A stretch of DNA of 64,000 nucleotides from the NCBI RefSeq assembly GCF_003334355.1, contig NZ_QOWP01000018.1; one strand, given 5' to 3'. Shown here one piece after another: positions 4,191-6,519 of this stretch (the first letter of the stretch is position 1; the number at the start of each line of letters is the position of its first letter). The position numbers were made by a program, and so were the translations under genes. The DNA is from Escherichia coli (GTDB lineage: Bacteria > Pseudomonadota > Gammaproteobacteria > Enterobacterales > Enterobacteriaceae). Below the pieces are notes generated by a model. That model made no database searches. It had not been told where the DNA came from and saw only the letters and a program-made list of their open reading frames with translations.

Positions 4191-4410
4191 AACCCTTTCT
4201 CCCTGTTAATCATGAACAAATCATTCGCCATGATTATAATATTTATCCCTGATATTTGTCTGGTTCTTTTTCCTTACGAACGGTTTCTGTGATTAATATA
4301 TTCTCACTGAACACCAGGAATTCTCCCAAAACCTGCGGTACCGCCCGTTTTCCCGCTGTGATAGCTACCCTTAAAGACTGACTCTTTTTTGAACTGTCTC
4401 TGGAGGTTGC

Positions 4411-5649
4411 ATGAAAGCATTGACTTATCACGGCCCACATCACGTTCAGGTAGAAAATGTTCCCGATCCGGGCGTTGAACAGGCAGATGATATTATTCTG
4501 CGTATTACGGCAACGGCGATCTGTGGCTCTGACCTCCATCTTTATCGAGGCAAAATACCTCAGGTTAAACATGGCGATATTTTTGGTCATGAATTTATGG
4601 GGGAAGTAGTTGAAACCGGAAAGGACGTAAAAAATTTGCAAAAAGGCGACCGAGTGGTAATTCCGTTCGTCATTGCTTGTGGCGACTGTTTTTTCTGTCG
4701 ATTGCAACAATATGCCGCCTGCGAAAATACCAATGCGGGTAAAGGCGCTGCGCTCAATAAAAAACAGATACCAGCTCCAGCGGCATTGTTTGGTTATAGT
4801 CACCTGTATGGCGGCGTTCCTGGTGGGCAGGCGGAATATGTCCGCGTCCCTAAAGGGAATGTGGGGCCGTTTAAAGTACCGCCTTTGCTTTCAGATGATA
4901 AAGCCCTTTTCCTTTCTGATATTCTGCCAACGGCATGGCAGGCAGCAAAAAATGCGCAGATCCAACAAGGTTCAAGCGTTGCAGTCTATGGTGCTGGTCC
5001 TGTGGGATTGTTGACAATCGCCTGTGCACGGTTGCTCGGTGCGGAACAGATTTTTGTTGTTGATCATCATCCCTACCGCTTGCATTTCGCCGCCGACCGC
5101 TACGGCGCGATCCCGATTAATTTTGATGAAGACAGCGATCCGGCACAGTCAATTATTGAACAAACGGCAGGTCACCGGGGCGTGGATGCAGTAATAGACG
5201 CCGTCGGTTTTGAAGCGAAAGGCAGCACCACGGAAACGGTGCTGACTAACCTGAAACTGGAGGGCAGCAGCGGTAAAGCGTTGCGCCAGTGTATTGCGGC
5301 GGTCAGGCGTGGCGGCATTGTTAGCGTACCCGGCGTCTACGCTGGATTTATTCACGGTTTCCTGTTTGGCGACGCCTTTGATAAAGGGTTGACGTTTAAA
5401 ATGGGACAGACCCACGTTCACGCATGGCTGGGAGAATTATTACCGTTAATTGAGAAAGGATTACTGAAACCAGAAGAAATTGTTACCCACTATATGCCGT
5501 TTGAAGAGGCCGCCCGGGGATATGAGATTTTCGAAAAACGTGAAGAGGAGTGCCGTAAGGTGATTCTGGTACCCGGTGCACAAAGCGCAGAGGCGGCGCA
5601 GAAGGCGGTTTCAGGTCTGGTGAATGCGATGCCGGGGGGAACAATATGA
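4411..5649 (+). CDS. ybdR: Zn-dependent alcohol dehydrogenase-family oxidoreductase
   Basis: 412-aa ORF with the MDR-family zinc site (GHEFMGEV), structural-zinc Cys cluster and GAGPVG Rossmann motif; position matches K-12 ybdR. Confidence 0.85.
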
Positions 5650-5879
5650 TCGTCAGGAGTGGTTTTCGAGGTAAAGGACAGCCATGACGATAATCGCCGC
5701 CATAATCAGAAATCCTATCAGGATGTAAAATGCTTCTGCCATGGTTATTCCCACAAACGAAACGGAATAATTTTGCAGCAAAAGTGAACAGTGAGAACCA
5801 GGAAAAATTGCTGATTTTGCGTAAAGAGGATGCGAGTGCATCCTCTGGGCAAAGCGAGTTATCGCTTGTGCAGATGGGA

Positions 5880-6290
5880 TTAAAGCAGGTAGTCGCCAGC
5901 AGCTTCTGGCTGGTATTCGAGTTCCAGCACTTCAAGGTGGGTTGCAACGCCGCCCGGAAGTTCCCAGTGAATGGAATCGCCAACGCGCAGCCCCAGCAGT
6001 GCGGCACCTACCGGAGCCATAACGGAAAGCTGAGTATTGCTATCGGTCATTTTTGCCGGATACACCAGCGTGCGCACACGCACTTCGCCATCGCTAAGAT
6101 TGCGGAATTTAACCCGGCTGTTCATTGTCACCACGTCGTGTGGCATCTCTTCTGGCGAACACATTTGGGCGCGATCCAACTCTGCGTTTAACGCGTCGGC
6201 GATTGGCAAACCAGCATAGGCGGGTTGCTCCAGCAGAATATCGATGCGTTCGGCATCCAGGTCGTTAATGATGATAGTTGGTCTGGACAT
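5880..6290 (-). CDS. rnk: Regulator of nucleoside diphosphate kinase (GreA/GreB-like)
   Basis: 136-aa ORF recognised as Rnk. Confidence 0.9.
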
Positions 6291-6519
6291 TTTTACTCCA
6301 TGTCGTCGGTGCTGCGAGTGTCGCAGATAAACATACCCAAAAGAAAACCCTCACCGTCAGGCGGCGAGGGTTTAACTCACATGATGATACTGACTGTTGC
6401 TCACTCTTTGAAGTGATTTGCGTCACATTCAGGGAATTCCTCAATGCAGCGCATTATGTATAAATCTTAATCGCCTTGGTTTATGGAAGACGAATTAGCG
6501 TGTTTTGTAAATCAGATGA

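Follow-up and report, generated by a model that had tools for sequence, protein, structure and literature searches.

A 29-codon gene convergent to ybdR in Escherichia coli, very probably yldA, and its possible kinship with yoaI

The ORF downstream of rnk is very probably yldA

The open reading frame (ORF) at positions 5653 to 5742 on the minus strand of the window, by which we mean the whole 64,000-nucleotide stretch of Escherichia coli DNA analyzed here, is very probably yldA (b4734), a real and translated small membrane protein gene (probability of about 0.9). The ORF list and a direct reading of the sequence give a frame that opens with an ATG at 5740 to 5742 ("cat" on the plus strand) and closes, after 29 codons, with a TGA at 5653 to 5655; its 29-amino-acid product is MAEAFYILIGFLIMAAIIVMAVLYLENHS. 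A sequence-only reading of this DNA had picked out the same hydrophobic minus-strand ORF, which is present exactly as described there. It had also called the ORF unannotated. That proved incorrect, as RefSeq annotates the same bases as "small membrane protein YldA" in genomes with this allele (100% identical) and both NCBIfam and Pfam hold a YldA family. The NCBIfam equivalog model NF041476 matches residues 1 to 29 on profile positions 1 to 29 of 29 with 57.9 bits (E = 7e-16), above its cut-off of 45, and Pfam PF23689, "YldA-like," matches over 1 to 29 of 29 with 70.3 bits (E = 8.9e-20).

The counterpart in K-12 MG1655 is b4734 (YP_009518757.1, WP_000796528.1) at 643330 to 643419 on the minus strand, and our peptide is identical to the YldA given for MG1655 643330 to 643419 in Table 1 of VanOrsdel et al. 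(2018, Proteomics 18:e1700064, PMC6001520). Compared with YldA of E. coli (b4734), the sequence, coordinates, strand, and neighbors are identical, and we found no difference. VanOrsdel et al. named the gene and demonstrated synthesis of the protein with a chromosomal SPA tag and immunoblotting of LB cultures in both exponential and stationary phases (PMC6001520). The epitope tagging that the sequence-only reading had proposed as a check had therefore been done before, with a positive result. The gene is thus already known: it has been on record since 2018, with a name, experimental detection, and annotation, and it has its own NCBIfam and Pfam families. As a discovery, yldA is ordinary, and the link to YoaI and the allele dimorphism described below are the only new points.

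On its 3' side, yldA faces ybdR (annotated at 4411 to 5649, plus strand), whose transcript is antisense to yldA in a reported excludon. The stop codon of ybdR at 5647 to 5649 and that of yldA are convergent, with 3 nt between them. On its 5' side lies rnk (5880 to 6290, minus strand), the same-strand upstream gene, placed by annotation and by synteny in 34 species. Its stop at 5880 leaves a ybdR-rnk spacer of 230 bp, so both the spacer length and the convergence with ybdR had been read correctly from the sequence.

The 29-codon frame is nested inside a 62-amino-acid ORF (5653 to 5841, minus strand). We rejected this extended reading from the ATG at 5839 to 5841 because the Pfam and NCBIfam models span exactly its last 29 residues; in addition, the upstream in-frame portion shows no conservation and has indels. 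A protein search with the 62-amino-acid ORF returned only E. coli miscalls of at least 40 amino acids, from a collection that apparently includes no shorter proteins. An entry labeled "YldA [Vibrio cholerae]," from a 564-bp contig (protein P0008), carries the E. coli K-12 sequence, extended by a read-through tail, and is probably contamination of that assembly.

Protein-level selection on yldA

Using Rnk as the anchor for orthologous loci, we compared 80 rnk loci from GTDB representative genomes, with each species represented once. In 34 of these 80 loci from other Enterobacteriaceae species, rnk is followed immediately, on its own strand, by a 29-codon ATG ORF; the genera concerned include Escherichia, several Citrobacter, Enterobacter, Lelliottia, Leclercia, Kosakonia, Phytobacter, and Pseudenterobacter. 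All 34 orthologous ORFs had the same length, with no indel and no internal stop. For the codon analysis, we used 36 distinct sequences, namely, those of the 34 species and the two E. coli alleles. Start, stop, and length were identical in all 36, and the YldA frame was open in every one; the other same-strand frames were open in 3/36 and 9/36. Disruption of the frame in close relatives, which the sequence-only reading had regarded as damaging to the ORF, was thus not seen, and the open 29-codon frame is kept across many genera.

The third codon position was the most variable (entropies of 0.69, 0.50, and 1.22 for the three positions), the mean pN/pS was 0.39, and the median dN/dS was 0.23. M1, E3, A21, V22, and E26 were invariant (36/36), and I7, A16, V19, L23, Y24, and L25 were nearly so. 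The rnk-yldA spacer ranged from 126 to 310 nt among loci, with indels. yldA evolves under protein-level purifying selection.

These measurements bear on an alternative in which the peptide is translational noise and the conserved entity is RNA or DNA, such as a ybdR terminator, the rnk 3' untranslated region (UTR), or the antisense overlap. An ORF the size of yldA is by itself not beyond chance, as ORFs of 29 codons often arise by chance (the ORF list has 59 of at least 20 amino acids that overlap the 3.5 kb around yldA), and an excludon has been reported at this locus (PMC12288877). Conservation is what exceeds chance, however. Translational noise does not fit with the variable third positions, the dN/dS of 0.23, or a length that is fixed in 36/36 sequences while the flanking spacer takes up indels. 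Furthermore, the ORF stays conserved in loci that lack ybdR, 20 orthologs yielded no conserved RNA structure, and the two E. coli alleles, despite differences at 15/29 residues, have their architecture and invariant residues in common. We consider this alternative to be largely refuted already, with next to no probability left to it.

Within E. coli, either yldA allele was present in 5418/5426 complete genomes, and a 501-bp query around yldA matched 5423/5426 of them at a median of one place per genome. Across species, yldA was absent downstream of rnk in 46 of the 80, Salmonella among them, and is therefore dispensable.

yldA is tied to rnk and has two alleles in E. coli

Among the 80 species loci, yldA and ybdR occurred together in 12, yldA alone in 22, ybdR alone in 10 (e.g., Salmonella), and neither in 36. 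Because each gene occurs without the other, we rejected a ybdR-yldA functional unit; the partner to which yldA is linked is rnk rather than ybdR. The ybdR-yldA pair is one of the convergent, overlapping transcript pairs given by ExcludonFinder (PMC12288877), and in K-12-type strains yldA would be subject to this antisense overlap. Given that 22 of the 34 species with yldA, as well as B2-type E. coli, have no ybdR, the overlap is not a general feature of the family.

We found ybdR together with a K-12-type yldA in 3601 E. coli genomes, and in 1817 we found no ybdR and the other, B2-type allele. Genomes without ybdR, such as ATCC 11775, have an annotated yldA between uspG and rnk, with the product MSEALGITAFYIFIAAIIVAAVLYFEQRW. 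The B2-type and K-12-type proteins are identical at 14/29 residues and differ at 15/29, and their synonymous sites are saturated (pS of 0.81); the architecture and the invariant residues are nevertheless common to both alleles. At the DNA level, homology between the haplotypes breaks off exactly at the 3' boundary of the rnk hairpin described below (window positions 4191 to 5822 compared with L002:2707-3000). The non-K-12 type is common to E. albertii and other Escherichia (28/29 residues), with a Citrobacter lineage as the next nearest, and K-12-type YldA is closest to a C. amalonaticus-like sequence (22/29). Either an old polymorphism or horizontal exchange of a ybdR-yldA block would account for the split. 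The locus illustrates clearly how two old alleles of a 29-codon gene coexist in E. coli, and the recombination boundary between them falls at the likely rnk terminator. Both allele lineages occur in Citrobacter, too.

Two further forms of the locus were observed. In one, an IS66-family element at the 3' end of yldA (L004:3001-4723, L005, and L006; protein P0009) changes the tail from ENHS to SKRQRSTVLTLIYW and gives a 40-amino-acid product. This insertion parts yldA from ybdR, leaves Glu26 in place, and is found on at least 94 contigs. The other is a 67-amino-acid ORF on a 4-kb metagenome scaffold (L087:2703-2906, protein P0005) in which the 5' half of the non-K-12 allele is fused to K-12 sequence, comprising the upstream region and yldA itself; a chimera assembled from two strains is the most likely explanation.

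Transcription and translation signals

Reading of the sequence upstream of the yldA ATG places a Shine-Dalgarno (SD)-like GGGA at 5749 to 5752 on the minus strand, that is, at -10 to -7 and 6 nt before the ATG. The sequence-only reading had reported this weak element at a distance of 8 to 11 nt; the element itself is there, and the distance is off by one, which is immaterial. Purine-rich GGGGA, GGGA, or GGAA motifs stand at the same distance from the ATG in most orthologous loci.

Farther upstream, folding of the minus strand gives a hairpin 3' of rnk at 5825 to 5846, with the form AGAGGATGC-N4-GCATCCTCT followed by TTTACG, 82 nt upstream of the yldA ATG. The hairpin has 9 bp and is followed by TTTCCG or TTTACG, and its stem is nearly invariant in 64 of the 80 rnk loci, with or without yldA. 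Because it is kept whether or not yldA follows, the hairpin belongs to rnk, and it is likely the rnk terminator with a poor U-tract. The weakness of this U-tract makes read-through into yldA plausible. A search for a sigma-70 promoter of yldA found none between the rnk hairpin and the ATG, and the sole hit lay inside the coding sequence. yldA would probably be transcribed either by RNA polymerase reading through the weak rnk terminator or from a separate promoter.

The loop of the rnk hairpin (N3 to N5) varies freely, the few top-pair changes are compensatory (C:G to T:A), and the conservation of the stem is unusually high for a plain terminator. An Rfam scan of 5300 to 6400 left the hairpin outside any Rfam family. 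The same scan found rnk_leader (RF01771) upstream of rnk at 6336 to 6400 on the minus strand, with 76.8 bits (gathering score, 50) and with the match cut by the edge of the searched region.

An AT-rich inverted repeat at 5743 to 5774 (TTATTCC ... GGAATAA, then TTTT on the plus strand) overlaps the SD element of yldA. Judging from folds of both strands, it could act as a weak ybdR terminator on the plus strand and as an SD-masking hairpin on the minus strand. The plus-strand fold was no better than those of shuffled sequences (z of -0.06), and the repeat is specific to the K-12-type allele. We rejected the SD-masking hairpin as a conserved regulator, since no consensus structure was found in 20 orthologous 5' regions; for the same reason, the inverted repeat is not a feature of the family.

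YldA as a small membrane protein

Residues 4 to 25 of YldA are uncharged and have a mean Kyte-Doolittle hydropathy of 2.71. This composition predicts one transmembrane helix over residues 4 to 25, with an M-x-E N terminus and an E-[RQN]-[HR]-W tail (ENHS in K-12). The usual tail is E-R-H-W, and the K-12 tail, ENHS, is without the Arg and Trp of most orthologs. The orientation is probably N-out/C-in. The sequence-only reading had proposed a small membrane protein with a single predicted helix, which agrees with this hydropathy, and its synthesis is reported from the tagging in PMC6001520. With regard to expression, yldA falls within a 100-gene cluster that is induced by NaF under anaerobiosis and that includes osmotic and envelope stress genes (PMC10100675). 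In the searchable literature, we found no function, partner, localization, or topology for YldA and no report of its membrane fractionation, and there was no PDB match.

The sequence-only reading had also likened the ORF to type I toxins. On that account, YldA would be a membrane-damaging toxin checked by an antisense RNA, either the ybdR 3' UTR or an unseen small RNA (sRNA). TisB, ShoB, Ibs, and Zor are small hydrophobic single-helix toxins, and YldA is itself small, hydrophobic, and single helix; moreover, folding predicts a weak SD-masking hairpin for K-12, and the ybdR transcript is antisense to yldA in K-12-type strains (PMC12288877). Yet, for five YldA alleles, no toxin model was among the NCBIfam matches at E values of up to 1, although NCBIfam does contain such models (PepG1 was matched by a control protein). 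Neither an Rfam antitoxin nor an sRNA was found in 5300 to 6400, where rnk_leader was the only hit, and there was no PADLOC match. Type I toxin loci are patchy and multicopy, whereas yldA is single copy and keeps its place after rnk from genus to genus. Of the yldA-positive species, 22/34 lack ybdR, the source of the only known antisense transcript, as do 1817 E. coli genomes; the SD hairpin shows no conservation, and tagged YldA accumulates in normally growing LB cultures (PMC6001520). Taken as a group, TisB, ShoB, Ibs, Ldr, ZorO, DinQ, and Hok resemble YldA in size and hydrophobicity and, in K-12-type strains, in the antisense transcript over the gene. YldA is unlike them in that it has no sequence similarity to them and no known dedicated sRNA and in that it is single copy, vertically syntenic, and detectable in unstressed cells. 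The likeness to type I toxins therefore does not hold up, and we judge a toxin function to be highly improbable.

Resemblance of YldA to YoaI

YoaI (E. coli b1788, 34 amino acids), the nearest relative of YldA, is induced by PhoB and by low Mg2+; through Glu31, it binds EnvZ and activates it (PMC11429745). In YoaI, S26, V27, and E31 are invariant, and the E31A and E31Q exchanges abolish both EnvZ binding and EnvZ-OmpR activation (Vellappan et al., PMC11429745). When five YldA alleles were compared with 18,950 NCBIfam models, the YoaI model NF041475 was the second best (20.6 to 29.4 bits, E values of 6e-7 to 3e-4). K-12 YldA scored 22.5 bits, under the 45-bit cut-off of that model. The register of the match was constant, with YldA 3 to 28 of 29 on YoaI 8 to 33 of 34, and in the reverse direction YoaI matched the YldA model NF041476 in the same register (14.1 bits, E = 0.035). 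Our own YldA hidden Markov model (HMM) scored YoaI at 19.5 bits, which was reached by 0/5000 full shuffles and 0/5000 block shuffles. Nine other small hydrophobic E. coli proteins scored at most 2.8 bits on this HMM and matched neither NF041475 nor NF041476. In the alignment, A21, V22, and E26 of YldA pair with S26, V27, and E31 of YoaI, so that the Val and the Glu are kept and the Ser is replaced by Ala.

Both proteins appear to be single pass, and in both an acidic residue precedes the helix and a Glu follows it directly, at the same 22-residue spacing. They differ in that YoaI has five extra N-terminal residues, a tail of ERTG where YldA has ERHW or ENHS, and a locus (yeaK-yoaI) other than rnk-yldA. 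By these sequence comparisons, YldA is not an equivalog of YoaI but, at most, a distant paralog. The likeness spans about 25 mostly hydrophobic residues and lies below both curated cut-offs, and convergence may explain it. YoaI itself has no Pfam match, and Pfam does not connect YoaI and YldA. The 17 low-Mg2+-induced small proteins characterized in PMC11429745 do not include YldA, the text of that paper contains neither "yldA" nor any mention of a YoaI paralog, and our literature search found no paper linking YldA to YoaI.

Since 29 residues that are nearly all helix can act only by binding something larger in the membrane, YldA, which would have no room for catalysis, would dock its helix onto a larger membrane protein, like other small inner membrane proteins. 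Together with helix packing, the invariant Glu26 would then modulate a sensor kinase or a similar membrane partner. It is the position of E26, aligned with Glu31 of YoaI, that would make such a partner a likely target. The specifics of a YoaI-like kinase modulator, which are drawn by analogy, are tentative. The broader proposal, that YldA and YoaI may be ancient paralogs in one family of E-x22-E single-pass "connector" peptides and that Glu26 may tune a sensor kinase (EnvZ or another), is speculative and rather less likely than not.

YldA could instead be a structural or assembly subunit, or a stabilizer, of a transporter or respiratory complex, comparable to CydX, AcrZ, MgtS, and KdpF, with a merely convergent likeness to YoaI. 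Many characterized small inner membrane proteins bind transporters or oxidases (reviewed in PMC12648545), the YoaI similarity is subthreshold, and Pfam holds no link between the two families. The reciprocal cross-matches in the same register and the coinciding invariant positions, however, favor common ancestry, and no transporter or oxidase gene is a conserved neighbor of yldA, which is flanked by rnk and then by variable genes. We regard a subunit role as possible but rather doubtful. The kinship with YoaI, for its part, offers a specific and testable lead on the function of YldA, and if it is true, the K-12-type and B2-type alleles might tune their partner differently between phylogroups.

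yoaI and yldA also share a gene arrangement, in that both end convergently 0 to 3 nt from their neighbors and both pairs are listed as excludons (PMC12288877). In MG1655, yeaK and yoaI (L088:3575-4183) are convergent with 0 nt between the genes, compared with 3 nt for yldA and ybdR. This resemblance could be a coincidence, or it could reflect an arrangement that the two loci share.
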